Source: a virus | Virus record (IMG/VR): IMGVR_UViG_3300036772_000367 | Location: 1 to 64,000 of that record | Reading direction: 5' to 3' (one strand) | Length of the DNA stretch: 64,000 nucleotides | Part shown: positions 3,184 to 32,434 of the stretch, one piece after another | How the letters are laid out: every line of letters begins with the position of its first letter | Numbering within the stretch: position 1 is the stretch's first letter | Position numbers and translations under genes: made by a program | The notes under the pieces: model-generated | Database searches by the model: none | Seen by the model: only the letters and a program-made list of their open reading frames with translations | Told to the model about the DNA's origin: nothing

Positions 3184-3684
3184 ATGGAAAAGCGTAAGCC
3201 CACCGAAGACGAAATCGTCTCGGTGCTCACCTGGGACGGTCGCGCCGTTGTTGAATCAGTAGGCGGCATCGTGTGGCTGCTGGAGCGATACTTCAGTATC
3301 AAGACCAGCGAGCACACGGTCAAGCCCTTGGTCTTGGCATTAATGAAAGCAGGTCGCCTGAAGATGGTATCTCGCGATATCAATTCAGGAGCGCTCGCAC
3401 TGGCACATCGTCACATACGCGAGGGAGCCACCTACTACGGTCCGGCAGCTGAAGTCACTGAAGCGCACCGGCAGTGGCAGGACCGTTACATCGCTCGGGC
3501 TGATGCGGCCAAGCTCGTGGGCGACATGCACGATGTGGATGGTCCGGACGAGTTCAAGGACTCCAAGATCACGTACGACGGTGAGGGGAATATCCGTCTC
3601 ACCATCAGCCAGGAGCAGGCTCGCCGGTTGTGGTTCGGCGCCGAGCGGGAGGTATCTCAGCGCATGACGGCAACGACTGAATAA
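3184..3684 (+). CDS. hypothetical protein, paralog of 33913-34455
   Basis: shared PTxDE[IV] and GATYYG motifs. Confidence 0.7.
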   Translation: MEKRKPTEDEIVSVLTWDGRAVVESVGGIVWLLERYFSIKTSEHTVKPLVLALMKAGRLKMVSRDINSGALALAHRHIREGATYYGPAAEVTEAHRQWQDRYIARADAAKLVGDMHDVDGPDEFKDSKITYDGEGNIRLTISQEQARRLWFGAEREVSQRMTATTE

Positions 3685-3697
3685 GGAGATTGGAATC

Positions 3698-4015
3698 ATG
3701 TGGTCGCTGATGATCAATCTCGTGGCTGCCGTGGCGTTGGCAGTGGACGCCATGATTAGCTACCGTTTCGGTCTTCGTCGTGGGATAAGGGTTTCTTCGC
3801 ACAAGACGCCTTATCTGTGTGCGTGTGAACATTCCATTGCAGCCCACACAGCATCAGATCATTCCGGTCAATGCATGGTGCAATTCAAACGTGCGCATTA
3901 CGATAATATCGGTACGCGCAACGGTCATGAGTACGCGAGGTGTCCCTGTACGGGTTACGTCGGAGATCGACCCTTGACCCCGACGGATATCCAGAACTTG
4001 CTCAAAGATCCGTAA
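3698..4015 (+). CDS. membrane-anchored Cys/His protein
   Basis: N-terminal TM helix; CACEH...H...C...CPC; AAGGAG RBS. Confidence 0.6.
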   Translation: MWSLMINLVAAVALAVDAMISYRFGLRRGIRVSSHKTPYLCACEHSIAAHTASDHSGQCMVQFKRAHYDNIGTRNGHEYARCPCTGYVGDRPLTPTDIQNLLKDP

Positions 4016-12873: not shown

Positions 12874-12903
12874 TTGACTCGTCCGCAGAACCCCGGCTAC
12901 ACT
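12874..12903 (+). promoter_or_regulatory. promoter of tRNA operon
   Basis: A-rich upstream, TTGACT-N18-TACACT. Confidence 0.7.
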
Positions 12904-13135: not shown

Positions 13136-13209
13136 CGCGGAGTGGCGCAACTCGGTAGCGCGCTGGGCTCATAACCCAGAGGTCCCTGGTTCGAATCCAG
13201 GCTCCGCTA
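13136..13209 (+). tRNA. tRNA-fMet(CAT)
   Basis: cloverleaf, C1:U72 mismatch, three G-C pairs in anticodon stem. Confidence 0.93.
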
Positions 13210-13254
13210 CGTAGGATAGATGTGGGTCGGACTTAGGCCGTCAGCATATGATCT

Positions 13255-13273
13255 CTGACAACTCCATGACCAT
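13255..13273 (+). repeat. left arm of 19-bp inverted repeat (boxA-like)
   Basis: CTGACAACTCCATGACCAT is the exact reverse complement of 23743-23761. Confidence 0.9.
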
Positions 13274-13372
13274 TCCCGGTAGTCCGCCAAGCTACTGGGC
13301 TGTGCGGGGCAGTCTCCCCGTGTATCAATCCTTGACGGCCGTCCGTGTCATATAGCGGATCGGACGGCCGAT

Positions 13373-13443
13373 GACGGAGTGGCCGAGAGGCGAGGCGACC
13401 GCCTGCAAAGCGGTGCACACGGGTTCGAATCCCGTCTCTGTCT
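13373..13443 (+). tRNA. tRNA-Cys(GCA)
   Basis: cloverleaf, loop CTGCAAA, U73. Confidence 0.92.
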
Positions 13444-13505
13444 CATAGGCTCCTAGGAGGGCACCAGTTGTCTGGACTGGTGGGAGTGAGGAAAGCCCTC
13501 CGCTT

Positions 13506-13578
13506 GGGGTCGTGGCGCAATTGGTAGCGCGCCTGTCTGGCAGACAGGGGGTTGTGGGTTCAATTCCCACCGATTCCA
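13506..13578 (+). tRNA. tRNA-Ala(GGC)
   Basis: cloverleaf, G3.U70. Confidence 0.92.
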
Positions 13579-13708
13579 CGGCTGATGTTCGACTACGTGC
13601 GCCATGCCTGTAGGCGGAAGACATCAGTGGCCGGCACCAGCCTGCTGCGGCAGGGTGACCCGGCGTCCGGTCTGAGGGCTCCAACATTGTCCTCAGACCG
13701 GACCATAA

Positions 13709-13781
13709 GGGCTGCTAGCTTAATTGGAAGAGCGACTCCTTTGCACGGAGTTAGGTCGGGGTTCGAGTCCCCGGTGGTCCA
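13709..13781 (+). tRNA. tRNA-Ala(TGC)
   Basis: cloverleaf, G3.U70. Confidence 0.92.
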
Positions 13782-13883
13782 CGTGGGAATGCAGGTCAAC
13801 ATCACCTTCCCTCCCCAGGAGACTTGCATTCCCCTTTTCCAAGGAGGTGGTTGTTCATGGATTAGCTCCCCTAGGAGGTAATC

Positions 13884-14096
13884 GTGAGCAGGACCGATAA
13901 AGATCGCAAGCGCCACCATCTGCCCGAGGACGAACAGCCTCGTATCTTCCACGGTGGCGGCGACTGGCAGGGCATCAACAGGTACGTGAACATGTACTTC
14001 ACCAGGCCCGACCGGCGCCGCGCCAAGCGCGCGTGCCAGCTCGGACAGGAGTACACCAGGCCCCATCGTCACGATGGGCGCTGGATGTACTGGTAG
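13884..14096 (+). CDS. small basic protein (MSRT...W type)
   Basis: GTG after AGGAGGT. Confidence 0.65.
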   Translation: MSRTDKDRKRHHLPEDEQPRIFHGGGDWQGINRYVNMYFTRPDRRRAKRACQLGQEYTRPHRHDGRWMYW

Positions 14097-14204
14097 ACGG
14101 AGTCGGCTACCTGGGAGATACCCCGGTGCACCGGGACGGCTCAGGTCCGTTGAAATGCCGACCGCGCTGCCTGCCTCACCCCCCTGCGGTAGGCAGCGCG
14201 TCAT

Positions 14205-14278
14205 GGTGGATGTAGCTCAGCTGGCAGAGCGCCGGGCCGTGGTCCCGGAGGCGGTGGGTTCGAACCCCACCATTCACC
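14205..14278 (+). tRNA. tRNA-His(GTG)
   Basis: cloverleaf, G-1:C73, unusual C33. Confidence 0.9.
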
Positions 14279-14281
14279 CGA

Positions 14282-14346
14282 GAGAGAAAGACCAGGTTTG
14301 AATCCTGGCTGGCGACAGTCGGCAGTGTGTGAAGAGCACGCCTCTC
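14282..14346 (+). ncRNA. circularly permuted tRNA-like RNA 1
   Basis: T arm, then acceptor hairpin closed by GACA, then D arm, closed by GAGAG/CTCTC. Confidence 0.5.
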
Positions 14347-14352
14347 GTTATA

Positions 14353-14419
14353 CGCAGTGCGCCGCAACGGCCTCGTGCTTTCAGGAACCGGCCAGCCCGT
14401 TCGAGTCGGGCCACTGCGC
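14353..14419 (+). ncRNA. tRNA-like element, central TCA, defective anticodon stem
   Basis: 7-bp acceptor CGCAGTG/CACTGCG, T arm GCCCG-TTCGAGT-CGGGC, mini D arm. Confidence 0.5.
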
Positions 14420-14530
14420 AGTTCTGCCACGGCAGCTACCCGGTAAGCCCTCCGCTTCGGCCGACACGGTGCCGGGTCGTGGTAGTTGAAACGCTGCACG
14501 GAGCACTTTGGCGCCGAAGTGCTCCACCAT

Positions 14531-14604
14531 GCGGATGTAGCTCAGATTGGTAGAGCGCGACCTTGCCAAGGTCGAGGCCACGGGTTCGATCCCCGTTATC
14601 CGCT
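14531..14604 (+). tRNA. tRNA-Gly(GCC)
   Basis: canonical cloverleaf. Confidence 0.94.
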
Positions 14605-14620
14605 CGCGTTGATTTGACAT

Positions 14621-14693
14621 GCTCCTATCGTCTAGCGGCCTAGGATCTCGGATTTTCACCCCGGGGGCACGGGTTCGAATCCCGTTGGGAGTA
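14621..14693 (+). tRNA. tRNA-Glu(TTC)
   Basis: cloverleaf, one anticodon-stem mismatch. Confidence 0.9.
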
Positions 14694-14697
14694 CGAA

Positions 14698-14772
14698 GGG
14701 AAAGGTAGAGGTTCAATTCCTCTCCGCCCGGCCACATCGGGCGAGTGGTGTTAACGTGGCGTGCACATTCCC
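14698..14772 (+). ncRNA. circularly permuted tRNA-like RNA 2
   Basis: GGGAA-AGGT-T arm-CCGCCCG-G-CCA-cat-CGGGCGAG-TG-D arm-A-TTCCC. Confidence 0.7.
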
Positions 14773-14779
14773 GGCTCTT

Positions 14780-14851
14780 GGCGATTTAGCTCAGTGGAAG
14801 AGTGCTTCCGTGACATGGAAGATGTCCCAGGTTCGATCCCTGGAATCGCTA
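14780..14851 (+). tRNA. tRNA-Val(GAC)
   Basis: cloverleaf, G32. Confidence 0.9.
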
Positions 14852-14852
14852 C

Positions 14853-14925
14853 GGCGGTATAGCTCAGTCGGCAGAGCGCGCGATTCATATTCGCGTCGTC
14901 CCTGGTTCGATCCCAGGTACCGCTA
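14853..14925 (+). tRNA. tRNA-Met(CAT), elongator type
   Basis: cloverleaf, GGC start. Confidence 0.85.
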
Positions 14926-15024
14926 CGTAGTACTCACCCCGAGGTACGCCCGACGTGAGAGCAGGCGGAATTTGTCAGGTATCAGACTGATCATCTGAGG
15001 TTTTGGCGTTCGTGGTCTGCATCC

Positions 15025-15099
15025 GCTCCGTTCGTCTAGTTGGCCTAGGACATCACGTCCTCAGCGTGAAGATCATGGGTTCGAATCCCATACGGAGTA
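15025..15099 (+). tRNA. tRNA-Glu(CTC)
   Basis: cloverleaf, C33. Confidence 0.9.
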
Positions 15100-15174
15100 C
15101 ATGAGGATTCCAGGAGTGGCCACTCCCGAGATCATGCAGGACCCCGATAGCTCAGGAATCCCTGTCGGGGGAAG

Positions 15175-15260
15175 GGAAGTGCGGCGGAGATGGCGGGCCG
15201 CGCCTGACTGTAAATCAGGAGTCCGTAGGACCGTTGGAGGTTCGAATCCTCTCGCTTCCA
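15175..15260 (+). tRNA. tRNA-Tyr(GTA)
   Basis: class II cloverleaf. Confidence 0.92.
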
Positions 15261-15487
15261 CTCGCCCTGGATTGTAGCCAGGGCGAACTACGTCGCCGAA
15301 CTGGAATGGGCACGGCGTCCTGCTCACCCAGGGGATAATGTTGCATACCAGCTACGGAGCGACGACCGTCAACAAGGCTGGGAGGGTTCTAGTCAACCCG
15401 AGCCAGGAAGTGCTGATCGAGGTGGAGTTCTCGGACTGCCCTGAGTCTGGGGACAGAGAAGCTGTTGACGTCGCCCTTCCTGGTCTT

Positions 15488-15560
15488 GCGTCGTTAGCTC
15501 AGTTGGTAGAGCACCATCCTCTTAAGTTGGGGGTCGAGAGTTCGAGCCTCTCACGGCGCA
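15488..15560 (+). tRNA. tRNA-Lys(CTT)
   Basis: cloverleaf. Confidence 0.92.
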
Positions 15561-15985
15561 CTGAGTCGGAACCATTTTTGTGTTTTAGCGGTTCGCCTCA
15601 TATGACAGTTGGCGCAAACAACTTGGCATTTCTCGATTTCACGGAGAATTCGTGACCATGCCAAACCACTGCCAATCATCACACTGAGGTTAGCGATCTT
15701 GTCGTGCTGATGATCGAATTGAAGTACGACAATATCCGTCTCTCCGCAGTCAGTGCATGGATGCTCGATCAAGTAGTCGCAGATCTTGTTTCGTAGTTCT
15801 ACGCCATACTGTTTCTTCCGCGCGTAGCGTGTGGGATTGTGAATGTCCTTAGTTTTCGTATAGTATGCTGCGTTGTATGATTTGCGACATTCTTTGCAAT
15901 GTACCTGTAAGCCGTCCGCCTTGGCTTTATTCGATCCAAATTCGGAGACTGGCTTGTCGTGTTTGCAGCCGGAGCAATATTTCAT
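15551..15985 (-). CDS. HNH endonuclease with N-terminal Zn finger
   Basis: CxxC...CxxC, then PCTDCG...FDH...CANCH; lower GC; only clear minus-strand gene. Confidence 0.88.
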   Translation of the reverse strand: MKYCSGCKHDKPVSEFGSNKAKADGLQVHCKECRKSYNAAYYTKTKDIHNPTRYARKKQYGVELRNKICDYLIEHPCTDCGETDIVVLQFDHQHDKIANLSVMIGSGLAWSRILREIEKCQVVCANCHMRRTAKTQKWFRLSAP

Positions 15986-16010
15986 TGTAAGAGTCTAACA
16001 GAGTAAGAGG

Positions 16011-16083
16011 GCTCCCTTAGCTCAGGGGTGAGAGCGGCTGGCTTATATCCAGTGGGTCGGGGGTTCAATTCCTCCAGGGAGCA
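16011..16083 (+). tRNA. tRNA-Ile(TAT)
   Basis: cloverleaf, loop CTTATAT. Confidence 0.88.
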
Positions 16084-16149
16084 CGAGGGGACTCGGTCGG
16101 ATCAGGAGGGCCGAGGATATCGGGTAGCGGGCTGACCCCGATGCATGAT

Positions 16150-16221
16150 GGTCCTATAGCTCAGCGGGAGAGCACCTCGTTCACACCGAGGGGGTCGGAG
16201 GTTCAATCCCTCCTGGGACTA
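16150..16221 (+). tRNA. tRNA-Val(CAC)
   Basis: cloverleaf. Confidence 0.92.
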
Positions 16222-16401
16222 CGCCGTACATGCGGCTCCAATCGAGCGTGAGAGGAAAGATCAGCCCTTGCGATCCCGGAATCATCGGCGGGTTAAAGGG
16301 TGTCGGATGGTCTCACGGCGGATAGGGGATGAGTCCGCTAGTCTCTCTACTTGATCCAGGTGATGTTAGGAAGCGAGGGCTGTTGCGCCAGTCCTCGTCT
16401 T

Positions 16402-16475
16402 GGCTGTGTAGCCCAACGGCAGGAGGCACCTGGCTTAGACCCAGGACAGTGCACGTTCGAATCGTGTCGCAGCCA
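16402..16475 (+). tRNA. tRNA-Leu(TAG), short variable loop
   Basis: cloverleaf, Leu-type D arm, A73. Confidence 0.9.
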
Positions 16476-16603
16476 CGTGGCGCAACGGGAATTGATCACC
16501 CGTTGTTGTTGACAAAGGGCCTTGGTCTGACCCTGCCACAGAAAATTCACCCGCTCTGGCAGCTCATGTCGTCCTAGGCAACGGCGGTGGGCAGGAGCGT
16601 TAA

Positions 16604-16677
16604 ACCCCATTAGCTCAGGCGGATAGAGCGTCGCGCTACGAACGCGAAGGCCGGAGGTTCGAATCCTCTATGGGGTG
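16604..16677 (+). tRNA. tRNA-Arg(ACG)
   Basis: cloverleaf, A20. Confidence 0.93.
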
Positions 16678-16678
16678 C

Positions 16679-16912
16679 GTGACCGATCAAATCGAAGTCG
16701 AGAGACTGAAGAATGGTCTCAAGTGGATCGAGCACATTGCTACCGTGCACTGGTACGGACAGGCATTCGAGCCACATCATATGCATGCTCTCGCACAACT
16801 GGCCAGCCAGCTATGCGACGGCAAGGAATTGCCTGATTTTGATACCCGGATGCGCGCAGCGATGGAGCGCGGTCAGCAGATATCCGAGGACATGGGGAAG
16901 CACTCGGAATGA
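16679..16912 (+). CDS. hypothetical protein directly after tRNA-Arg
   Basis: GTG 1 nt after discriminator. Confidence 0.55.
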   Translation: MTDQIEVERLKNGLKWIEHIATVHWYGQAFEPHHMHALAQLASQLCDGKELPDFDTRMRAAMERGQQISEDMGKHSE

Positions 16913-17004
16913 GCGAGACGTGGACAGCCGCAGAACGATCTGGGAGAGCGCCATGGGCTGGCTGGTGGCGATGTCCCTATGTCTCTCGGATGACCTAAGT
17001 TCTT

Positions 17005-17078
17005 GTCCTTGTAGCCCAACTGGCAGAGGCGGCGGGTTTAAGCCCCGCGCGGTGTGGGTTCGAATCCCACCGAGGACA
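17005..17078 (+). tRNA. tRNA-Leu(TAA), short variable loop
   Basis: cloverleaf. Confidence 0.9.
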
Positions 17079-17107
17079 CTGCTCTGGGATATTTCAAGGG
17101 AGACAGT

Positions 17108-17281
17108 ATGAGCGGAAACAGAGCTTTCGGCTATGGCCTGGGTGCTGGAGTCGCCACCGTTTCTATTCCTATGATGTTCTCTGCTAACTTTGGGGGCGGC
17201 CTGATTCTTCTGTGCGCTGCGAGCGCGATTATCGCGATAACCGGCGGCACTGATCGGATAGTCAAGCGTATCCGGAGGTAA
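17108..17281 (+). CDS. small membrane protein
   Basis: AAGGGAG RBS; two hydrophobic helices, basic tail. Confidence 0.6.
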   Translation: MSGNRAFGYGLGAGVATVSIPMMFSANFGGGLILLCAASAIIAITGGTDRIVKRIRR

Positions 17282-17290
17282 TCGCAAGAG

Positions 17291-17363
17291 GTTCCTGTAG
17301 CCCAATGGTAGAGGCACTGGCATGAGAGGCCAGACAGTGCAGGTTCGACTCCTGTCAGGAACA
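17291..17363 (+). tRNA. tRNA-Leu(GAG), short variable loop
   Basis: cloverleaf, A32. Confidence 0.9.
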
Positions 17364-17433
17364 CGTGATCACTCGGAGTCGCGGACCGCCGCGACGTTAC
17401 TTGGCCAGCCACCGGCCCCTGTCCCTACTATTC

Positions 17434-17507
17434 GCTCCTGTGACCCAATTGGCAGAGGTACCAGAATCAGAATCTGGTTGTTGGAGGTTCGAATCCTCTC
17501 GGGAGCA
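17434..17507 (+). tRNA. tRNA-Leu(CAG), short variable loop
   Basis: cloverleaf, A32. Confidence 0.9.
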
Positions 17508-17509
17508 CG

Positions 17510-17578
17510 GCGGGAAGTCAGGGGTTCGAGTCCCCTTCGGTCCACGCAGGGGCCGGTACCTCAGCGGCAGAGGCCCGC
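17510..17578 (+). ncRNA. circularly permuted tRNA-like RNA 3
   Basis: GCGGG-AAGTC-T arm-TCGGTCC-A-cgcag-GGGCCGG-TA-D arm-CCCGC. Confidence 0.8.
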
Positions 17579-17582
17579 ATTT

Positions 17583-17656
17583 GTCCTTGTAGCCCAACTG
17601 GCAGAGGCGTCCGATTCAAGATCGGAATGTTGGGGGTTCGAATCCCTCCTAGGACA
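17583..17656 (+). tRNA. tRNA-Leu(CAA), short variable loop
   Basis: cloverleaf. Confidence 0.9.
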
Positions 17657-17657
17657 C

Positions 17658-17864
17658 ATGGCCAGTTACGATCGAGCCCTGGATGCTGCTCTCGCTGCTC
17701 AGGTGAGAGTAGGAATCACACTGGATGAGCTCTTTAGACAGAACTTGGGGAAGGAGCTTCCCATCGAGCTTCTTCTGCGAGCTTTGGAAATTAACACTCA
17801 GTGTGGCTTCCTGGCAGCACGGATCGCCGAGATTCATCTACAAGCACGAGGGAAGGCCACATGA
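17658..17864 (+). CDS. hypothetical protein directly after tRNA-Leu
   Basis: ATG 1 nt after discriminator; ATGA coupling to VWA gene. Confidence 0.55.
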   Translation: MASYDRALDAALAAQVRVGITLDELFRQNLGKELPIELLLRALEINTQCGFLAARIAEIHLQARGKAT

Positions 17865-18529
17865 GCAAGCCGGGTTACACGGCGATCTGTCTGGTGATCG
17901 ACTCGTCGGGGTCAATGTTCAGCATCAAGAAGGTCACCGAGGAGACGGTGAACGGCTTCATCACCGAGCAGGCCCAGGCCGAGGGATATCGCACCCTGCG
18001 GCTGGCGACGTTCAGCAGCGGTTGGGTGATGGATGGCAGCCCCTGGTTGGCCGACAGCGGCTCCAGCGTGCCCGCCAGCGAGGTAGAATCCTTCGTCCTG
18101 CATCCCGAGGGCGCTACGGCCCTTCTGGACGCTGTCGGCACCATGGTGACCAAGTTCGGGCAGGAGCTGGCCGACCTGGACGAGGCCGACCGGCCTGAGC
18201 ACGTGGTCTTCGCCCTGATGACCGATGGCCAGGAGAACTCCTCGCGGGAGTACACCTGGGAGCAGGTCAGCAAGATGCTGACGCATCAGCAACAGGTGTA
18301 CTCCTGGAACGTCACCTTTCTGGGTGCCAACCAGGATGCCATCGCCACGGCCAGCAAGCTGTCCATTCCGCGCGGCAGCAGCCTGACGTTCGCGGCGAAC
18401 GATCAGGGCGTCCACGGCTCGATGAGCGCCTTCAGCACCTACACGAAGTCGGCTGCCGCCGGCATGACGTACAATTACACCGACGACGATCGGATTCGCT
18501 CGTCGGGTCTGGCGCCGAAGCAGCCGTAG
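17861..18529 (+). CDS. von Willebrand factor A domain protein
   Basis: MIDAS DSSGS, T-A-L-L-D-A, MTDGQENSS. Confidence 0.88.
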   Translation: MSKPGYTAICLVIDSSGSMFSIKKVTEETVNGFITEQAQAEGYRTLRLATFSSGWVMDGSPWLADSGSSVPASEVESFVLHPEGATALLDAVGTMVTKFGQELADLDEADRPEHVVFALMTDGQENSSREYTWEQVSKMLTHQQQVYSWNVTFLGANQDAIATASKLSIPRGSSLTFAANDQGVHGSMSAFSTYTKSAAAGMTYNYTDDDRIRSSGLAPKQP

Positions 18530-18537
18530 CGTCAGGG

Positions 18538-18610
18538 GCGCTCCTAGCTCAATGGATAGAGCATCGCTTTCCTACAGCGACGGTTGGGGGTTCGACTCCC
18601 CCGGAGTGCA
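18538..18610 (+). tRNA. tRNA-Arg(CCT)
   Basis: cloverleaf, A20. Confidence 0.92.
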
Positions 18611-18772
18611 CACCCTTTCATTCCGGGGTTATGGAATGCCCTTACGCCGATATGGGGTTAGGATGAGGCCGGGAGTAGGTCGACACTCACCAGTTGTCTA
18701 ATCGGAAGTGGTCGTACTCGTAGTACACCTCGTTTCCCCGAGCAACGAGACGAAATGAGGCGGCCCACCTAA

Positions 18773-18846
18773 GCGCTACTAGCTCAGCTGGACAGAGCAC
18801 CACTTTCCGAAAGTGGAAGTCGGGGGTTCGAGTCCCTCGTAGCGCA
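18773..18846 (+). tRNA. tRNA-Arg(CCG)
   Basis: cloverleaf, A20. Confidence 0.92.
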
Positions 18847-18847
18847 C

Positions 18848-18991
18848 GCAGGAGAGGCACTGGAGGATGCGGCGGGTCAGCCGCCGCTGCGTACCGTCGT
18901 CCAGGGACACCCTGGCCGGTGTGTAGGAATACTCAACCATCCGTTGTCCCTTGAGTAAGGACAGGGGGTTCGACTCCCCCACCTCTCCTGC
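18848..18991 (+). ncRNA. 144-nt multi-stem RNA with tRNA T arm
   Basis: 10-bp closing stem GCAGGAGAGG/CCTCTCCTGC, GGGGG-TTCGACT-CCCCC, three internal arms. Confidence 0.6.
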
Positions 18992-18994
18992 CCG

Positions 18995-19066
18995 TGCGAT
19001 GTCGTCCAACGGTCAGGGCACCGAGCTGATAACTCGGGAACGAAGGTTCAATTCCTTCCGTCGCAA
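18995..19066 (+). tRNA. tRNA-Ile(GAT)
   Basis: cloverleaf. Confidence 0.9.
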
Positions 19067-19141
19067 CTCGGAGAGGTCACTGCGGAATACCGGGGTTGCG
19101 TTACCGTACGCGTGACAACCGTCGCGCACCTCTCCGTTCAA

Positions 19142-19216
19142 CGCCTTGTAGCTCAATGGACAGAGCCGGGAGCCTCTACCTCCTGTGAGTTGGGGGTTCG
19201 AGTCCCTCCAGGGCGG
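19142..19216 (+). tRNA. tRNA-Arg(TCT)
   Basis: cloverleaf, A20, C33, 7-nt variable region. Confidence 0.82.
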
Positions 19217-19231
19217 CGTAGTAAAGACCAT

Positions 19232-19302
19232 GGCATCATAGCTTAGGGGCAAAGCATTCGCCTGAAAAGCGAGAGACGGAGGTTCGATTCCTCCTGTTGC
19301 CA
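19232..19302 (+). tRNA. tRNA-Phe(GAA)
   Basis: cloverleaf. Confidence 0.9.
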
Positions 19303-19325
19303 CGCAGAAAAGGAGATCAGACACA

Positions 19326-19562
19326 ATGGCTCATTGTTCAGCATGTAAGACTAAGGCGAAGTGCACGATCGAGGGCTGTGTCATCTTCGGTGGCCATTTC
19401 CGTACGAGCAGCTACTGCAAGATCGATACTCCGCAGTGTGTTGCGGTGATACACCACTCCACGTACGCGGCCGTGCAGGACACCAAGAGCACCAAGGTGC
19501 TGGTGATGTCCCCGACAATGTTCATCAAGTTCGTGAACTCGGATCTCGTCCAGTCGCGGTAG
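19326..19562 (+). CDS. small Cys-rich protein; C-terminus DUF397-like
   Basis: AAAGGAG RBS; FRTSSYC...CVAV...AVQDTK. Confidence 0.55.
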   Translation: MAHCSACKTKAKCTIEGCVIFGGHFRTSSYCKIDTPQCVAVIHHSTYAAVQDTKSTKVLVMSPTMFIKFVNSDLVQSR

Positions 19563-19568
19563 TCCGGT

Positions 19569-19641
19569 GCCTGCGTAGCTCAACTGGCAGAGCCCCGTTC
19601 TTGTAAAACGGTGGTTGGGGGTTCGAGTCCTCTCGCAGGCT
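19569..19641 (+). tRNA. tRNA-Thr(TGT)
   Basis: cloverleaf. Confidence 0.92.
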
Positions 19642-19721
19642 CGTCTTCCCGTGAGCGTGCCCGTGCGCGCGGGAGGAAAGATCGAAGAACCGGCGGTACA
19701 CGGGATTCTCCGGTTACATCT

Positions 19722-19793
19722 GCCCTTTTAGCTCAGTGGTAGAGCACCTTCTTGGTACGAAGGGGGCCGCGAGTTCGATCCTCGCATTGGGCT
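19722..19793 (+). tRNA. tRNA-Thr(GGT)
   Basis: cloverleaf, two U.U mismatches in acceptor stem. Confidence 0.85.
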
Positions 19794-19901
19794 CGGGAAG
19801 TATCCCAGGTAACATAAACTGATTCGGCTCGGTGAGGGTCCTCGGTGCTTCCTAGTAAAAGGACGGGCTGCTTCACATGGCAGGGGAGTAGCCCGTCCTT
19901 C

Positions 19902-19974
19902 GCCTCAGTAGCTCAGTTGGCAGAGCGTTCCTCTCGTAAAGGAAAGGCCGGAGGTTCAATCCCTCTCTGAGGCT
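19902..19974 (+). tRNA. tRNA-Thr(CGT)
   Basis: cloverleaf. Confidence 0.92.
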
Positions 19975-19975
19975 C

Positions 19976-20074
19976 GTTGTGAGTAGCTCAGTGGCAGAGC
20001 GGTAGCAGCAGGGTGAAACCTCGCTGTGCATCGACGTCAGTTTATGACACAGGTTCGATTCCTGTCTCACAACT
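19976..20074 (+). ncRNA. tRNA-like RNA with elongated, non-canonical anticodon arm
   Basis: 8-bp acceptor GTTGTGAG/CTCACAAC, canonical D and T arms. Confidence 0.75.
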
Positions 20075-20079
20075 TTCAT

Positions 20080-20153
20080 TGGGTAGTAGGGGAAATGGCA
20101 GACCCACCTGGCTCTGACCCAGGGTTTTGGAGGTTCGAGTCCTCCCTACCCAG
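20080..20153 (+). tRNA. tRNA-Gln(CTG)
   Basis: cloverleaf, U1-A72. Confidence 0.9.
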
Positions 20154-20170
20154 CTTTTTAGGAGGGCAAT

Positions 20171-20407
20171 GTGCGATTAACTGAAGCACAAGAGCGAACC
20201 CTAGAGGAAGCAACCTGCCAGAAATGCTTCCAAGCAGGTGGATTGACAGTCGAGTACAGACTGACCGCCATGCCGATCGGCAGCTTCTCACTGGCTGGTG
20301 CCCAGATGAAAGTCAGTGCCCTTGAGTGGCCCTGGCTGATGTGCCGGCACTGTGGCGCGGAATGCCAGGGCAAGCAAGTCACTACGACCACTCCGGAGGG
20401 CACGTGA
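20171..20407 (+). CDS. zinc-ribbon protein
   Basis: CQKC...CRHC; AGGAGG RBS. Confidence 0.65.
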   Translation: MRLTEAQERTLEEATCQKCFQAGGLTVEYRLTAMPIGSFSLAGAQMKVSALEWPWLMCRHCGAECQGKQVTTTTPEGT

Positions 20408-20631
20408 GCGAGGATCTCTACGAAGTCGGTATGCCGGTTGTGGGTTTGAACAGGTATGGGGACGTGGTCGAAGGTGTCTACCACGGCGCCACTGAGCAGA
20501 CCTATGTCTGTCGAGGGCATCTCGTCTCCACACCTGTTCACCATATTGTCGATGACACGGGCCTTGGCCGAATGGTTTTCCCCGACACTGTCGTAGCACT
20601 CACTGATCTGGAGAGGATGCCCCGGGCATGA
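20404..20631 (+). CDS. hypothetical protein
   Basis: GTGA coupling, GGAGG RBS. Confidence 0.6.
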   Translation: MSEDLYEVGMPVVGLNRYGDVVEGVYHGATEQTYVCRGHLVSTPVHHIVDDTGLGRMVFPDTVVALTDLERMPRA

Positions 20632-21107
20632 CGGACGACCAGGTACCGAATGAGGATGCTTCGGCACCGTACGACGGCCCCAGTGGCGAGATCATCGCCC
20701 AGACCCTCCGGGAGGCCCTGGGGATGCTGAAGAACGGCTACGACGACACCAAGGAGATCCTGGGTGCTTCGGTGGCCGCCGCGCTCGTGGCGCTGTTCCA
20801 GGAGGAGCTGGACGCCATCACCGAACACCTCTCCGGATCGGACGGCGAGCCGGCAGCGGTGGCTGTCTCTCCCTGTCGCAGTGAGACGTGTGCAGCCGAT
20901 CTGGCCCAGGCCCTGCTGGATGAGTACTGGAAGGGCATCGAGGAAGCGCCCGCCGTGGAGATCCCGGAGAACGGCGGCGCGGCCATGGTGGAGCTGCATG
21001 TACGCGGTCAGCATGTGTCCCTGTCGAAGGAGTTCGACACGCTGCCTGAGCTGGCCGTCGGTCTGGATGACATGGCGACCAAAGTCCGAGGGCTGATCAA
21101 GGAGTAA
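20628..21107 (+). CDS. acidic hypothetical protein
   Basis: ATGA coupling, GC3-rich. Confidence 0.65.
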   Translation: MTDDQVPNEDASAPYDGPSGEIIAQTLREALGMLKNGYDDTKEILGASVAAALVALFQEELDAITEHLSGSDGEPAAVAVSPCRSETCAADLAQALLDEYWKGIEEAPAVEIPENGGAAMVELHVRGQHVSLSKEFDTLPELAVGLDDMATKVRGLIKE

Positions 21108-21114
21108 GGAGCGC

Positions 21115-21189
21115 GGGTCGTTAGCTCAAATTGCGCAGAGCATCCGGCTTTTACCCGGAGGGTTCTGGGTTCGAATCCCAGGCGGCCTA
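21115..21189 (+). tRNA. tRNA-Lys(TTT)
   Basis: cloverleaf; D loop lacks GG. Confidence 0.88.
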
Positions 21190-21193
21190 CTAA

Positions 21194-21264
21194 TCCGGAT
21201 TGGTCTAATGGCAGGACAACGCTCTTTGGAAGCGTGAGCAAAGGTTCGAATCCTTTATCCGGAG
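21194..21264 (+). tRNA. tRNA-Gln(TTG)
   Basis: cloverleaf, U1-A72. Confidence 0.9.
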
Positions 21265-21279
21265 CAGAGGTGATGTTGA

Positions 21280-21732
21280 TTGAGTTACTGTCGATTGTCC
21301 GATGACGATTACCAATGTGATGTGTACGTGTACGAGGACGCCAGCTTCGGCGGATGGACTACCTGGGTGGCATCCCACCGGCCTGTGCTGGTCGATCTTC
21401 CGGACCCCATTGATCTGCCCGACGAGCACACCGAGGCTCAGTTCGCGGCGTTCTACGAGCGGTGGCGCGCGGTAGGCAAGTTGGTGGAGAAGGCCGAGAG
21501 AATCGAGATCGGCCTGCCCCATGACGACGGCCAGTTTCGCCATGGCTCGCCGGGAGAGTGTGCGGACAACCTCCTGCGGCTGCGGGAGATGGGCTACAAC
21601 GTGCCCGACTACGCCATCGAACGACTGCGGGCAGAGCAAGCCGAGGGTCACACGAATCCGCTAAAGTCGATGGACGATCTCATGAAAGAGATCACGGGGG
21701 AACTTGCGGGCGAAGTTGGTGATGCTGGATGA
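21280..21732 (+). CDS. conserved-looking phage protein (MSYCR...CDVYVYE)
   Basis: TTG after GAGGTGA. Confidence 0.7.
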   Translation: MSYCRLSDDDYQCDVYVYEDASFGGWTTWVASHRPVLVDLPDPIDLPDEHTEAQFAAFYERWRAVGKLVEKAERIEIGLPHDDGQFRHGSPGECADNLLRLREMGYNVPDYAIERLRAEQAEGHTNPLKSMDDLMKEITGELAGEVGDAG

Positions 21733-21911
21733 AAAGTACGGCCGGGCGCCCCAGCATGGGTAAGCGGACACGCAAGGGTGGTGCTGAGTACGACGCCTTC
21801 TCGCGGTACTGGCGACACTTCATGAGCCAACGCCGAGGTGTCATCAAGACCTTGGCTCGTCGCCGTGAGCGACGTCAAGCACACCAGTGGGATTGGACCA
21901 CCGGCTGGTGA
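21729..21911 (+). CDS. small basic protein
   Basis: GAEYDAFSRYWR...RRERR. Confidence 0.55.
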   Translation: MKSTAGRPSMGKRTRKGGAEYDAFSRYWRHFMSQRRGVIKTLARRRERRQAHQWDWTTGW

Positions 21912-22044
21912 CAGAGTTCGGGACCTCTTGTCCGCGTATGGCACGCAGGGCACGGGATACAACACCATCGCGATCTCCCAACGGCACGTGACGTGGTGGA
22001 GATCTTGGGAAACGCTGGTTGCGCACTGGCGCCCGGACCCCTAG

Positions 22045-22131
22045 GGAGGTATGGCAGAGTGGTAATGCGCTGTCCTGCTAAGACAAGGCTCGGTTTAAAA
22101 CCCGACGAAGGTTCAATTCCTTCTACCTCCG
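22045..22131 (+). tRNA. tRNA-Ser(GCT)
   Basis: class II cloverleaf, G73. Confidence 0.92.
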
Positions 22132-22133
22132 CT

Positions 22134-22254
22134 GGCTAGTGGTGTAACGGCGCACACCCGAAGATCTCGGCAATACTAGTTGAGCCTGAAGCGTGAGTGC
22201 ACCGCGCGGAAAAGAGAAGCTTCGGTAGGTTCGGTTCGACTCCGGCGGCCTACC
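22134..22254 (+). ncRNA. tRNA-like RNA with about 60-nt structured insert at the anticodon position
   Basis: D arm GTGT-AACGGC-GCAC, CCGAAG/CTTCGG stem, TTCGACT T loop. Confidence 0.55.
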
Positions 22255-22271
22255 CTCGTGAAAGGATATTC

Positions 22272-22667
22272 ATGGCTCGGTCCGAAGGTAAGTTCAGTGT
22301 GGGAAACCACAACGAGCAGATCCTGTATCTGCGTGGTGCCGAGCGAGATGCCGATCTGATGGTGGCGGCCTTCTTCAAGTCCGGTGTCGGCAAAGCAATC
22401 GCTGAGGTGCTGAACAATCATCTGGATGAGGTTATTCATACCATCATGACGTACACAGGGAGTGTACGACCGGGAATCCCGGTGAAGCCCGACAACAGCG
22501 AGGCACGAAAGACGACGATCAACGCGGGGGTCACAACAGTACTTAGCCAACTCAACAGTTCCGATGCTGCTGCCGTCTCCCTGATGACCGGACTCAGCAA
22601 TACTGAACTCGACGATCTCGGTGGATTGCCGTCCGACTCGATCTATGACGATCGGGCGTCGGACTGA
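22272..22667 (+). CDS. hypothetical protein
   Basis: AAAGGA RBS. Confidence 0.6.
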   Translation: MARSEGKFSVGNHNEQILYLRGAERDADLMVAAFFKSGVGKAIAEVLNNHLDEVIHTIMTYTGSVRPGIPVKPDNSEARKTTINAGVTTVLSQLNSSDAAAVSLMTGLSNTELDDLGGLPSDSIYDDRASD

Positions 22668-23017
22668 TGACTGATTCCCTAGTCATACAATTCACGATCG
22701 ATCTGGCGGATCTCCTGGGTAGCCCGCACCACACCTTCACCCAAGAGATGATGCGCGGGATGGGAGACAAGACAGTGCCGCTACGGAAGGGAGAGGGTGG
22801 CCCTCAGATCGGCTACGGCGTCATTGTGGAAGACCAGGACACTGAACACCTCTTCCTGTACGCCACGGTTACCAACTCACCCGAGCTGTTCGCGGACGTG
22901 ATGTCGTCCTACAGTGTTGGCTTCACCGAGTGCACCAGCCCGCTGCACGGCCGGGATCGGCACACCGAGGACGGTTGTGCCCTGCGGCAGATGTCAGACA
23001 AGCTGGATGTGGATTGA
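22667..23017 (+). CDS. hypothetical protein
   Basis: TGATG coupling. Confidence 0.6.
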   Translation: MTDSLVIQFTIDLADLLGSPHHTFTQEMMRGMGDKTVPLRKGEGGPQIGYGVIVEDQDTEHLFLYATVTNSPELFADVMSSYSVGFTECTSPLHGRDRHTEDGCALRQMSDKLDVD

Positions 23018-23022
23018 AAGAA

Positions 23023-23094
23023 CGGGGCGTAGCTCAGCGGTAGAGTGCCTGATTTGGGATCAGGAAGTGGCAGGTCCGACTCCTGTCGCCCCGA
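23023..23094 (+). tRNA. tRNA-Pro(TGG)
   Basis: cloverleaf; T loop TCCGACT. Confidence 0.9.
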
Positions 23095-23095
23095 C

Positions 23096-23272
23096 GTGAA
23101 ACAATGTTCGAGCTGTGGATTGATGAAGTCTTATGATGAATTTCATCGGAATGTGGCTCGGTCAGATGGATATCAGAATGCGTGCAAGGATTGCCGTAAG
23201 ACTATAAGAGGCGTTTCGGTTGTTCGAGGAGAGCGGGTTCTTCGACTACCTTGCTCAGTAGTTGTTTGGTAG
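23096..23272 (+). pseudogene. truncated HNH endonuclease (Zn finger only)
   Basis: KQCSSC...EFHRN...DGYQNACKDCRK matches N-terminus of 15551-15985; no HNH core. Confidence 0.65.
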
Positions 23273-23281
23273 TCGATCGAT

Positions 23282-23352
23282 GCGAGTGTCGTCTAACGGC
23301 AGGACAACAGCCTTCCAAGCTGTTTACGCGGGTTCGAATCCCGTCACTCGCT
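23282..23352 (+). tRNA. tRNA-Gly(TCC)
   Basis: cloverleaf. Confidence 0.92.
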
Positions 23353-23451
23353 CTCGTCTCTAGGCTTCTCGCAGTTCTGAGAAGCTATCGGGTCCACTCT
23401 CTACCACGCCAAAGGTGGAGATATCGAGTGGTGACGTAATCACCTGTACAA

Positions 23452-23534
23452 GGAAGGTCGCGGCGACGGTAGCCAGCTCGATTCGAAATCGAGTGCCAGG
23501 GTGACACCTGAAGGTTCGAATCCTTGTCCTTCCG
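23452..23534 (+). tRNA. tRNA-Ser(CGA)
   Basis: class II cloverleaf with mismatches. Confidence 0.82.
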
Positions 23535-23538
23535 CCCA

Positions 23539-23626
23539 GGAGGGTGGCGCCTATGGTTGGTACCTCGTCTTGAAAACGAGTATGCCGGGTGAAAGCCCGA
23601 GGGTTCAATTCCTTCTCCCTCCGCCA
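23539..23626 (+). tRNA. tRNA-Ser(TGA), CCA encoded
   Basis: class II cloverleaf, GCCA end. Confidence 0.85.
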
Positions 23627-23640
23627 GACAGTAGTATCGA

Positions 23641-23728
23641 AGAAGCGTAAGCCGAGTTGGTCTACCGGCGCCCGCCTGGAACGCGGGAAGGGGTCACACC
23701 CGTGCGAGTTCGAGTCTCGCCGCTTCTG
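23641..23728 (+). tRNA. tRNA-Ser(GGA)
   Basis: class II cloverleaf. Confidence 0.88.
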
Positions 23729-23742
23729 CTCATATTAGATCT

Positions 23743-23761
23743 ATGGTCATGGAGTTGTCAG
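23743..23761 (+). repeat. right arm of 19-bp inverted repeat
   Basis: ATGGTCATGGAGTTGTCAG, 14 nt after the last tRNA of the main cluster. Confidence 0.9.
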
Positions 23762-23868
23762 TCGATCGTGCCCAGTATTGAACTTGGTGTGAAATATGGT
23801 AACCATCTGTCGAGCTGCACCCATCTTCCCCCCAGGGGAATACTGAGACGATTCTTCAGGAAACTATC

Positions 23869-24219
23869 ATGCGTGAGCGTATTTTGTCAGTAAGCATCAA
23901 GGACTGCGAAGTTCAGCATTTCCGTTCCGGTGGCAAGGGTGGTCAAAATCAAAACTGCCGCGACACCGGTACGCGCGTCATCCACCATGAGTCTGGCGCG
24001 CGAGGCGAGTCCCGCGAAGAGCGGTCCCAGCTCCAGAACGAGCGCACCGCTTTCCTGCGGATGGTGGAGTCGGTGGCCTTCAAGCGCTGGATGGGCCTGA
24101 AGTTGCTGGAGGGGCCGTCGCCCGAGGAGCGCGTACGCCAGGAGATGAAGCCAGAGAACATCCGGACCGAGGTTCGTCGAGATGGAGTCTGGATGGAAGT
24201 GAAGGAAGTTCATAGCTAG
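23869..24219 (+). CDS. RF-1 domain peptidyl-tRNA hydrolase (ArfB/YaeJ-like)
   Basis: FRSGGKGGQNQN...RVIH...ERSQLQN. Confidence 0.88.
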   Translation: MRERILSVSIKDCEVQHFRSGGKGGQNQNCRDTGTRVIHHESGARGESREERSQLQNERTAFLRMVESVAFKRWMGLKLLEGPSPEERVRQEMKPENIRTEVRRDGVWMEVKEVHS

Positions 24220-24224
24220 AAAGC

Positions 24225-24253
24225 TTGCTACACACCTCTGGTTTTGCTAAGCT
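24225..24253 (+). promoter_or_regulatory. early-type promoter
   Basis: TTGCTA-N17-TAAGCT with TG extension. Confidence 0.7.
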
Positions 24254-31750: not shown

Positions 31751-32434
31751 ATGCCCGAGTACACGTTCGAACAACTGAATGACCTCACACCGATGGTGAA
31801 GGATCCGGCTGTCAAGATCGAGCCAGTCGCACTGATCGACACCAGCGGCAGCAACCTGTGGATGGCGACCTCCGGCGGCAAGGTCAGCCGGTGGGAGCTG
31901 GTCACCGAGCTGATGCAGGGCGTCGTCACGAAGCTGGCCCCGGCCGACTCTCAGGCCGAGCACGAGGAGGACGGCGGCGGCCTGATGATCGTCACCTTCG
32001 CCAACCCGCCGGGTCAGCACCACGAGGCACGGGTGGTCGGTGATCTGAACCCCGACAATTTCTCCACGGAATGGGGGACCATCGAGGTCGGCGGCGGTAC
32101 GTACGCCATGCCCGGCTGGGACCTGATGTTGGACAACTTCGTGAAGGAGTTCAAGGACGAGGCTGTGATGCCCACTCTCGGTCTGCTCGTCGTGACCGAC
32201 GGTGAGATGGCCGACCTGTCCCAGTTCGCCGCGAAGATCGGCGGTGTCGGTGACACCGTGAAGGTGGTCATGGCCGTGCACGGATATGGTGCCGACCACG
32301 ACCGTGCGGTGACCTCCTACCGCGCCGTGGAGAAGGCGCATCCCGACGCTCTGCGGGTCCTCCAGGTGGTGCCGAACACGAGCCCCGATGTGGTGGCTGA
32401 TGCCATGCTGACCCTTCTGGGTCTGAACGGCTGA
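31751..32434 (+). CDS. von Willebrand factor A domain protein
   Basis: LIDTSGS, GGGT, VVTDGE. Confidence 0.8.
   Translation: MPEYTFEQLNDLTPMVKDPAVKIEPVALIDTSGSNLWMATSGGKVSRWELVTELMQGVVTKLAPADSQAEHEEDGGGLMIVTFANPPGQHHEARVVGDLNPDNFSTEWGTIEVGGGTYAMPGWDLMLDNFVKEFKDEAVMPTLGLLVVTDGEMADLSQFAAKIGGVGDTVKVVMAVHGYGADHDRAVTSYRAVEKAHPDALRVLQVVPNTSPDVVADAMLTLLGLNG

Follow-up and report, generated by a model that had tools for sequence, protein, structure and literature searches.

The genome of a soil phage deposited as IMG/VR record IMGVR_UViG_3300036772_000367 (155,226 bp, rated complete by CheckV) contains a long transfer RNA (tRNA) array at whose two boundaries lie the arms of a perfect 19-bp inverted repeat, the left of which overlaps a motif resembling the boxA element of ribosomal RNA (rrn) operons. 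The array falls within the first 64 kb of the record, the stretch of 64,000 nucleotides (nt) analyzed here and referred to as the window, and comprises 36 tRNA genes on the + strand (13136-23729; ARAGORN). The reading put forward here, to which we assign a probability of roughly 45%, is that the two sites constitute an rrn-style leader-trailer module of a long tRNA operon, acting in RNA. The original prediction had described the repeat as bracketing the tRNA operon, and this stands for the right arm, which begins 14 nt past the last tRNA gene (tRNA-Ser), but not for the left one, which follows the first gene (tRNA-Met) by 45 nt, so that 35 of the 36 clustered tRNAs lie between the arms. Its description of the bracketed 10.5 kb as mostly untranslated needs correction, as the region also codes for about 10 open reading frames (ORFs) called in an independent assembly, two of them with PHROG families.

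The left arm, CTGACAACTCCATGACCAT (13255-13273), and the right arm, ATGGTCATGGAGTTGTCAG (23743-23761), are complementary at 19 of 19 positions, as originally predicted, and the 19-mer is unique to this arrangement: with up to three mismatches allowed, no copy other than these two occurs in either the window or the whole genome, and shuffled versions of the window yield 0.01 matches. A genome-wide search for distant exact inverted repeats of at least 19 nt returns only two, the arms being one of them and the other a 22-mer resembling a repeated motif that contains GGAGGTCA. The outward pairing of about 7 bp anticipated for this repeat is also recovered by cofolding, through five Watson-Crick and two G-U pairs across a 1x2 internal loop, and the whole helix reaches some 26-27 pairs at -42.9 kcal/mol. 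Both G-U pairs of the extension can form only in + strand RNA, the strand that carries the tRNAs. Less weight attaches to its GATC portion, because GATC is 2.1-fold over-represented in this genome (1214 occurrences against 566 expected from base composition), an excess that could be relevant to methylation or to the avoidance of restriction. As had been noticed, CATAT(TA)GATCT stands as a direct repeat ahead of each arm. The left arm forms an unpaired stretch in the local minimum-energy fold of its spacer, and the right arm is predicted to be accessible, since the 61 nt around it fold worse than 198 of 200 shuffles. No Rfam family matches at either arm.

The likeness of the left site to rrn boxA, which the original prediction had pointed out, is borne out by comparison with Gram-positive leaders and by the recurrence of the motif in the tRNA arrays of other phages. 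The rrn operons compared (six from Actinomycetota and three from Bacillota) were drawn from plasmid-collection records. The phage sequence TGATCTCTGACAACT is identical at 13 of 15 positions to the leader boxA of Bacillus velezensis and Paenibacillus, TGATCTTTGAAAACT, and at 11 of 13 to the published B. subtilis consensus, AUGAUCUUUGAAA (PMC13753749), with which the Bacillus and Paenibacillus leader boxA found here agrees. Identity to the E. coli consensus GYTCTTTAANA amounts to 8 of 11 positions (PMC5725501), and the leader boxA of the six actinobacterial operons takes the form GTT[C/G/T][C/T]TTGAGAACTC. The crystal structure of NusB-NusE limits recognition to nucleotides 1-8 of boxA, with emphasis on G2, C5, position 6 (U or C), and U8 (PMC3177189). 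The phage core, UGAUCUCU, retains G2, C5, U6, and U8; among the family cores considered (Bacillus leader, UGAUCUUU; E. coli, UGCUCUUU; Aquifex, GGCUCCUU), it agrees with the Bacillus and Paenibacillus core at seven of eight positions and with that of E. coli at six of eight. A pattern derived from rrn boxA finds four sites in the genome at no more than one mismatch, all of them on the + strand, and that at 13250 is the only non-coding one among those checked (8819 lies within a 315-codon ORF; the others are at 32125 and 66570). On the + strand, the motif follows the first tRNA by 38 nt and a candidate promoter by about 345 nt, and so occupies an early position in a long, poorly translated unit. 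A boxA-type identity for the left site is, on these comparisons and on the recurrence in other phages, moderately well supported. Capture of a piece of a host rrn operon was considered as a source of the site and discarded, as matches to the 19-mer in genomes do not go beyond chance.

Three further phage contigs, designated G001, G002, and G004, carry sequence islands of 14-15 nt corresponding to this motif in their tRNA arrays, in sense orientation. Six phage sites and two rrn leaders can be aligned (alignment A1) over an invariant G.TCT.TGA.AACT, with flanks that are otherwise unalignable. G001 (59% G+C) carries the identical 16-mer 20 nt after a tRNA, and no protein similarity to the phage is detected in the 14 kb of G001 compared. 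G002 (IMGVR_UViG_3300016665_000612) harbors two paralogous modules, at 26.9 kb (L313:5300-5460) and 45.8 kb (L137:7880-8040), each of which presents the first tRNA, a short hairpin, an unpaired boxA-like 15-mer, and a hairpin with the loop AUGAAGAGU. The stems of the two modules differ in sequence while their pairing is kept (fold z-scores of -2.9 and -2.7), and their layout recalls the boxB, boxA, and boxC order of rrn and nut sites. G004 (IMGVR_UViG_3300046710_000261; 156 kb, 36% G+C) was found among loci fetched as relatives of the RF-1 gene that ends the phage unit; it presents TGATCTTTGACAACTG about 20 nt downstream of a consensus promoter, TTGACA-17-TATAAT, and its motif, TGATCTTTGACAACTGAA, lies 590 nt ahead of the first of 32 clustered tRNAs and matches the Paenibacillus rrn leader at 19 of 20 positions.

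A scan of IMG/VR with TGATCTYTGACAACT returned at least 116 matches, most of which are presumably due to chance. Among the 116 matches listed, two to three fall in strand-matched array spacers, two of these being tRNA-tRNA spacers (those of G001 and G002), whereas none of the 120 matches listed for a reversed-pattern control is both on the same strand and adjacent to a tRNA. Taking the spacer fraction from the control loci, the enrichment among the matches listed is moderate, with a binomial p ranging from 0.006 (two matches) to 0.0002 (three). Over approximately 225 kb of arrays, the pattern matches nine times in sense and once in antisense (five independent phage contigs), one further match being a ROOL RNA. 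The presence of a boxA-type element in some phage tRNA arrays is hence moderately well supported. One locus (L163), with half-site copies on either side of the motif, was left out of the count as a possible operator. An apparent second boxA/anti-boxA bracket (L215) turned out to be the closing helix of the ROOL RNA and was excluded from the evidence. That RNA (RF03087, 210.8 bits, 3308-3882; L215:3240-3900 of IMGVR_UViG_3300045590_000160) lies inside a phage tRNA array, directly after a TTGCTT-17-TATACT promoter. The rrn boxA pattern is matched by its 5' end, GCTCCTTGAAAACTGAATCC, which together with the 3' end forms a closing helix of 28 bp.

Similarity to an rrn leader is also seen outside tRNA arrays. 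The boxA region of the Streptomyces rrn leader has counterparts in 114 cultured Streptomyces phages (R4-like/Camvirus and relatives), matching at 83-97% across 31-41 nt. Among the approximately 40 Streptomyces phage records listed, the match is situated some 0.7 kb short of the right end of the genome, for the most part where nothing is annotated, and in Joe and phiScoe56 it sits under a weak hypothetical-protein call. The corresponding region of Joe (KX815338.1, ~48.0-48.4 kb, minus strand; L301:560-900) reads TTGCAC-17-TAGAGT, then GCGCGAGATCCTTGAGAACTGAACAGAGTGCC, and then the leftward operon gp79-gp73, which looks like a host-type boxA placed in a phage operon leader. A literature search returned nothing that connects boxA to the tRNA arrays of phages or to Streptomyces phages.

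The rrn operons provide the architectural counterpart of the phage arrangement. In all nine Gram-positive operons, 12-13 of the 14 leader boxA nucleotides pair with an anti-boxA located between the 16S and 23S genes, in the spacer, within leader-spacer helices of 27-34 pairs and -25 to -54 kcal/mol that show a single small interruption inside boxA. The phage helix, with 27 pairs and 13 of 14 boxA nucleotides paired, lies within this range in size and energy and follows the same design. Because boxA occupies the 5' strand of the helix in nine of nine operons, its location in the left arm of a long-range stem is the true rrn layout, and the original prediction of a pre-rRNA-like arrangement is upheld in this respect. 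A scan identifies no + strand terminator of weight between the arms, and we infer that both are co-transcribed.

The exact 19-mers expected between two boundary zones of about 1 kb, as calculated from base composition, number approximately 7e-6, and about 0.07-0.09 distant exact 19-mers are expected genome-wide. What is unusual about the repeat is its perfect identity combined with its placement, and not its stability; identity and placement therefore point to shared origin or to selection on the sequence, and do not by themselves separate an RNA from a DNA function. An accidental origin, in which an unrelated 19-mer match arose in a genome rich in short repeats and happened to resemble boxA, is unlikely, even though real genomes exceed expectations such as those given above and this genome shows a general excess of distant inverted repeats of at least 16 nt (15 against about 4 expected). 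An ungapped helix score that tolerates G-U pairs and one mismatch is, moreover, equalled by one of 150 dinucleotide shuffles of the 3' zone, boxA-like strings at three mismatches are common, and the features were picked after the fact by a reader seeking anything notable. Accident would nonetheless have to account for the improbable joint placement of the arms at both array boundaries, for the overlap with the one non-coding boxA-pattern site among those checked, for an adjoining direct repeat and an outward extension that are each improbable in turn, and for the same motif island in the arrays of other phages, and these points are largely independent.

Several observations weigh against an rrn-style module. 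Regarding the helix, its energy is not exceptional, as shuffled zones average -40.4 kcal/mol (34-nt windows, bulges allowed), and energy alone is not significant because shuffled GC-rich zones also yield duplexes of about -40 kcal/mol. The span of 10.5 kb is five times that of any rrn helix examined (1.7-2.0 kb), and the arms pair at 19 of 19 positions through Watson-Crick pairs with no G-U, as in a recent or DNA-level repeat, whereas the rrn helices include 1-11 G-U pairs. The first tRNA stays outside the bracket, and pairing would require Nus tethering or action in trans, because the left spacer should be released by RNase P and 3' processing well before transcription reaches the right arm. 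As for the motif, its best match to an actinobacterial boxA is 12 of 15, a level met 23 times in the genome; since three-mismatch matches to the actinobacterial 15-mer are this common, similarity alone is weak. Core position 7 is C in the phage and U in all 17 rrn boxAs compared, the C7 variant being shared with G001, and the motif includes CTGACA, which resembles a -35 hexamer. A promoter reading of this CTGACA/TTGACA is not favored, given that the six phage sites lack a consistent -10 at 16-18 nt, and it is further weakened by the consensus promoter located just upstream of the G004 motif. Among seven cultured tRNA-rich actinophages, six (Skog, Pupper, E3, Kela, Bxz1, and Myrna) have no match to the boxA pattern, and the seventh, LilMartin, has two at 66-70 kb, about 20 kb from the one tRNA located and so apparently away from its array.

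The distribution of the partner arm counts on the same side. No convincing anti-boxA partner was found in G001 or G002, whose contigs end in or near the array, or in G004, whose array is complete, and the stem is therefore a single instance. No relative with both arms or with alignable spacers was found in IMG/VR, JGI metagenomes, GTDB genomes, GenBank phages, or Logan, where the nearest relatives are no closer than about 61% amino-acid identity. Neither a relative nor any of the other phages with the motif shows both arms, so that no covariation is seen. In G004, a candidate helix brackets the array 125 nt after boxA and 206 nt after the last tRNA (L042:4369-4387 / 15890-15908); it comprises 18 pairs, including 3 G-U, with 1 mismatch, and is GC-rich in a 36% G+C genome, but it is equalled by 3 of 150 shuffles and is weak, suggestive only.

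These observations bear on a possible, if rather unlikely, alternative in which the left site is a working boxA and the right arm, as a neutral or recent inverted copy or an element with an unrelated role, is not its RNA partner, so that no stalk forms. Such a copy could have been generated, for example, by template switch or short gene conversion, taking the CATAT..GATCT flank along. The occurrence of the motif with no partner in G001, G002, G004, and phage Joe is in line with this alternative, as are the recency suggested by the 19/19 identity and the unexceptional duplex energy. The flank itself, shared on the 5' side of both arms, is a direct and not an inverted repeat, which duplication predicts and a pure helix does not; its role is left unexplained by the helix model, and it hints that the right site may have arisen by copying part of the left one. 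On the other hand, a neutral copy would have landed exactly 14 nt after the last tRNA, and for a given repeat pair to occupy both boundary positions by chance has a probability of about 1e-5 or less, as estimated from zone sizes. Nor does copying by itself account for the unusually unstructured surroundings of the right arm, for an extension beyond the 19-mer that pairs through sense-strand G-U, or for a layout equal to that of nine of nine rrn operons.

The arms might instead act in DNA as a pair of oppositely oriented sites, whether for binding or for recombination: the ends of an invertible segment, transposon-like terminal repeats of a tRNA island, or targets of a protein that loops or insulates the DNA. 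Their likeness to boxA would then be coincidental. This is distinctly improbable on the evidence of the genome. A perfect inverted repeat of a length typical of terminal repeats, with GATC just outside both arms, fits such a role, and so do the variable, island-like nature of tRNA arrays in related phages and the promoter-like CTGACA-18-TAATAT that the right arm reads on the minus strand. Against it, neither serine recombinases/resolvases (PF00239) nor tyrosine recombinases (PF00589) have any match in the whole genome, with control genomes matching; no rve transposase is present in the genome, and the internal ORFs carry no recombinase or transposase domains. No clean target-site duplication is seen (the flanks are GATC-T and TC-GATC), no third or degenerate copy exists in the genome, and base composition is the same inside and outside the bracket. 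The 19-mer occurs in none of 2.9 million viral contigs, and its three scattered single matches in 596 Gb of genomes are of the order of chance. Furthermore, inversion of the array would set 35 tRNAs antisense to their promoter. Mobile-element ends are accordingly rejected, in view of the lack of IMG/VR matches, the chance-level GTDB matches, and the absence of a transposase and of a clean target duplication. An invertible segment, which the original prediction had named as the competing possibility, is unlikely in a genome with neither serine nor tyrosine recombinase. Inversion and transposition are thus both unlikely, and a role involving a host enzyme or a binding protein remains compatible with the sequence. 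A self-targeting CRISPR protospacer was also rejected, there being no third copy within three mismatches.

From the rrn-style reading of the two sites we infer a course of Nus binding, antitermination, pairing in vivo, cleavage, and reset. The left boxA-type site, emerging about 345 nt into the transcript after the first tRNA, would load host NusB-NusE (S10) and turn RNA polymerase termination-resistant. The 10.5-kb, largely untranslated, hairpin-rich transcript could in this way be protected from Rho and from tRNA-like pause or terminator structures. Once transcribed, the right site would pair with the left site, kept near the polymerase by the Nus complex, a way of holding the 5' strand that has been proposed for rrn operons. 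The resulting helix of some 26-27 bp, sized and designed like the Gram-positive 16S leader-spacer helix, would be a substrate for RNase III, and its cleavage would need the host enzyme, since no RNase III gene is encoded in the phage genome, which has no NusB gene of its own either. Burial of boxA in the helix could end antitermination ahead of the terminal RF-1 gene and its hairpin. A wider proposal takes boxA and anti-boxA as a built-in on/off switch, in which boxA, once loaded with NusB-S10, would travel with RNA polymerase through the 10.5 kb until the antisense copy past the last tRNA strips it from the complex, restores termination at the end of the operon, and makes an RNase III site, and considers boxA-type elements to be a recurrent, so far undescribed feature of large phage tRNA arrays and of ornate phage RNAs such as ROOL; it must be regarded as doubtful.

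Large tRNA arrays are common in big phages, and we know of no account of how their 5-15-kb, largely untranslated, structure-rich transcripts escape Rho and intrinsic termination. If such arrays borrow boxA from rrn operons, and this phage the entire leader-trailer helix, Nus-factor antitermination would be extended to a new target class, and the start of a phage tRNA transcription unit could be recognized by a simple sequence. A natural test would also become available, over 10 kb, of the idea that the antitermination complex keeps hold of the 5' strand of a helix up to the synthesis of the 3' strand. The general idea lends itself to testing in a tractable laboratory system, as what looks like a host rrn-type boxA stands in an operon leader of more than 100 cultured Streptomyces phages.

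The features of the putative transcription unit are collected in Table 1. The phage DNA has a G+C content of 59%, and four further tRNAs, at 30.9-31.7 kb, lie outside the bracket. Between two tRNA-Ser genes, 23538-23623 gives a sub-threshold Rfam match of the tRNA-Sec/Ser type (34.4 bits) that is uncalled by ARAGORN and may be an additional tRNA-like RNA of the array. A weak promoter-like pair, TTCGAA-16-TAGGAT, was noticed by eye only in the T-loop and 3' trailer of tRNA-Met (13190-13217), and a start from it would fall about 25 nt ahead of the boxA-like motif. At the ends of the record, the last ~124 nt (genome positions 155087-155226) directly repeat the first ~125 nt, after which 15 nt fold back as the reverse complement of 70-84. 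Since the first ~125 nt recur at the record end, the genome is terminally redundant or circular (IMG/VR: linear), and an 18-bp "terminal inverted repeat" (70-87 / 155209-155226) was dismissed as an assembly-end artefact.

Table 1. Elements of the tRNA transcription unit and of the two boundary sites, in window coordinates.
Feature	Position	Strand	Remarks
Candidate promoter of the tRNA operon, TTGACT-18-TACACT	12874-12903	+	Inferred; consensus scan only
tRNA-Met	13136-13210	+	First of array, outside the bracket; ARAGORN, Rfam
Direct repeat, left copy, CATATGATCT	13245-13254	+	Overlaps the 5' half of the boxA-like motif
Outward 7-bp extension, left strand	13247-13253	+	Cofold
boxA-like motif, TGATCTCTGACAACTC; 8-nt core, UGAUCUCU	13249-13264	+	Identical 16-mer in a tRNA spacer of G001
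Left arm, CTGACAACTCCATGACCAT	13255-13273	+	Half of the perfect 19-bp inverted repeat; 45 nt after tRNA-Met
Local 9-bp hairpin	13275-13299	+	Directly 3' of the left arm; placed like the hairpin after boxA in both G002 modules
Cargo	13373-23729	+	35 tRNA genes, tRNA-like RNAs, ~10 ORFs
Direct repeat, right copy, CATATTAGATCT	23731-23742	+	Directly after tRNA-Ser
Right arm ("anti-boxA"), ATGGTCATGGAGTTGTCAG	23743-23761	+	Exact antisense of the 3' portion of boxA and of 9 further nt
Outward 7-bp extension, right strand	23764-23770	+	Cofold
RF-1 domain (ArfB-like) gene	23869-24219	+	Last of unit; Pfam PF00472, 8.4e-13; phrog_3122
Repeated hairpin (repeat family D8)	24205-24238	+	Candidate terminator at unit end; function inferred

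The closest known parallel to the proposed module is the leader-spacer helix of rrn operons in Actinomycetota and Bacillota, in which a boxA 14-mer likewise sits in the 5' strand and the 3' strand, immediately downstream of the mature RNA, is an anti-boxA. In E. coli it is established that helices of this type are cut by RNase III and that Nus factors load at boxA (PMC10250234, PMC3177189). The boxA of the B. velezensis rrn leader comes directly after a tRNA, and the order of a first tRNA followed by boxA is common to the phage, G002, and this leader. The two systems differ in their cargo, which is 16S rRNA in rrn operons and 35 tRNAs plus ORFs in the phage, and in their pairing, the phage helix being a perfect 19-mer with 1-2 G-U pairs as opposed to the 1-11 G-U pairs of rrn. 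Furthermore, no second downstream boxA that could serve a second helix has been identified in the phage.

Other systems share the use of boxA. An early boxA in the suhB leader brings in NusB/E and prevents termination by Rho (Baniulyte et al., 2017; PMC5725501), and boxA-dependent Nus regulation of enterobacterial CRISPR arrays is among the work cited in PMC13753749. These cases resemble the phage in placing boxA early in a long or untranslated transcript, the tRNA array being likewise untranslated and Rho-exposed, and differ from it in being cellular, gammaproteobacterial, and devoid of an anti-boxA partner. The nut sites of phage lambda (boxA, boxB, and the N protein) illustrate how a phage exploits host Nus factors by means of a boxA that its own transcript carries. 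In the phage studied here, neither an N-like protein nor a partner binding boxB has been identified, and the motif is of the rrn type and not of the weakened lambda type, and serves a tRNA array in place of early mRNAs. The R4-like Streptomyces phages (Joe, Endor1, Lika, Amela, and about 110 others) also carry boxA behind a promoter (TTGCAC-17-TAGAGT ... GATCCTTGAGAACTGAACAGAGTG) and share the A at core position 3, but their boxA has the canonical actinobacterial form TTGAGAACT, heads a protein-coding operon, and has no anti-boxA partner. The kind of system is known, from rrn operons, lambda nut sites, suhB, and the boxA of CRISPR arrays; what is new is its cargo, its span, and its phage context.

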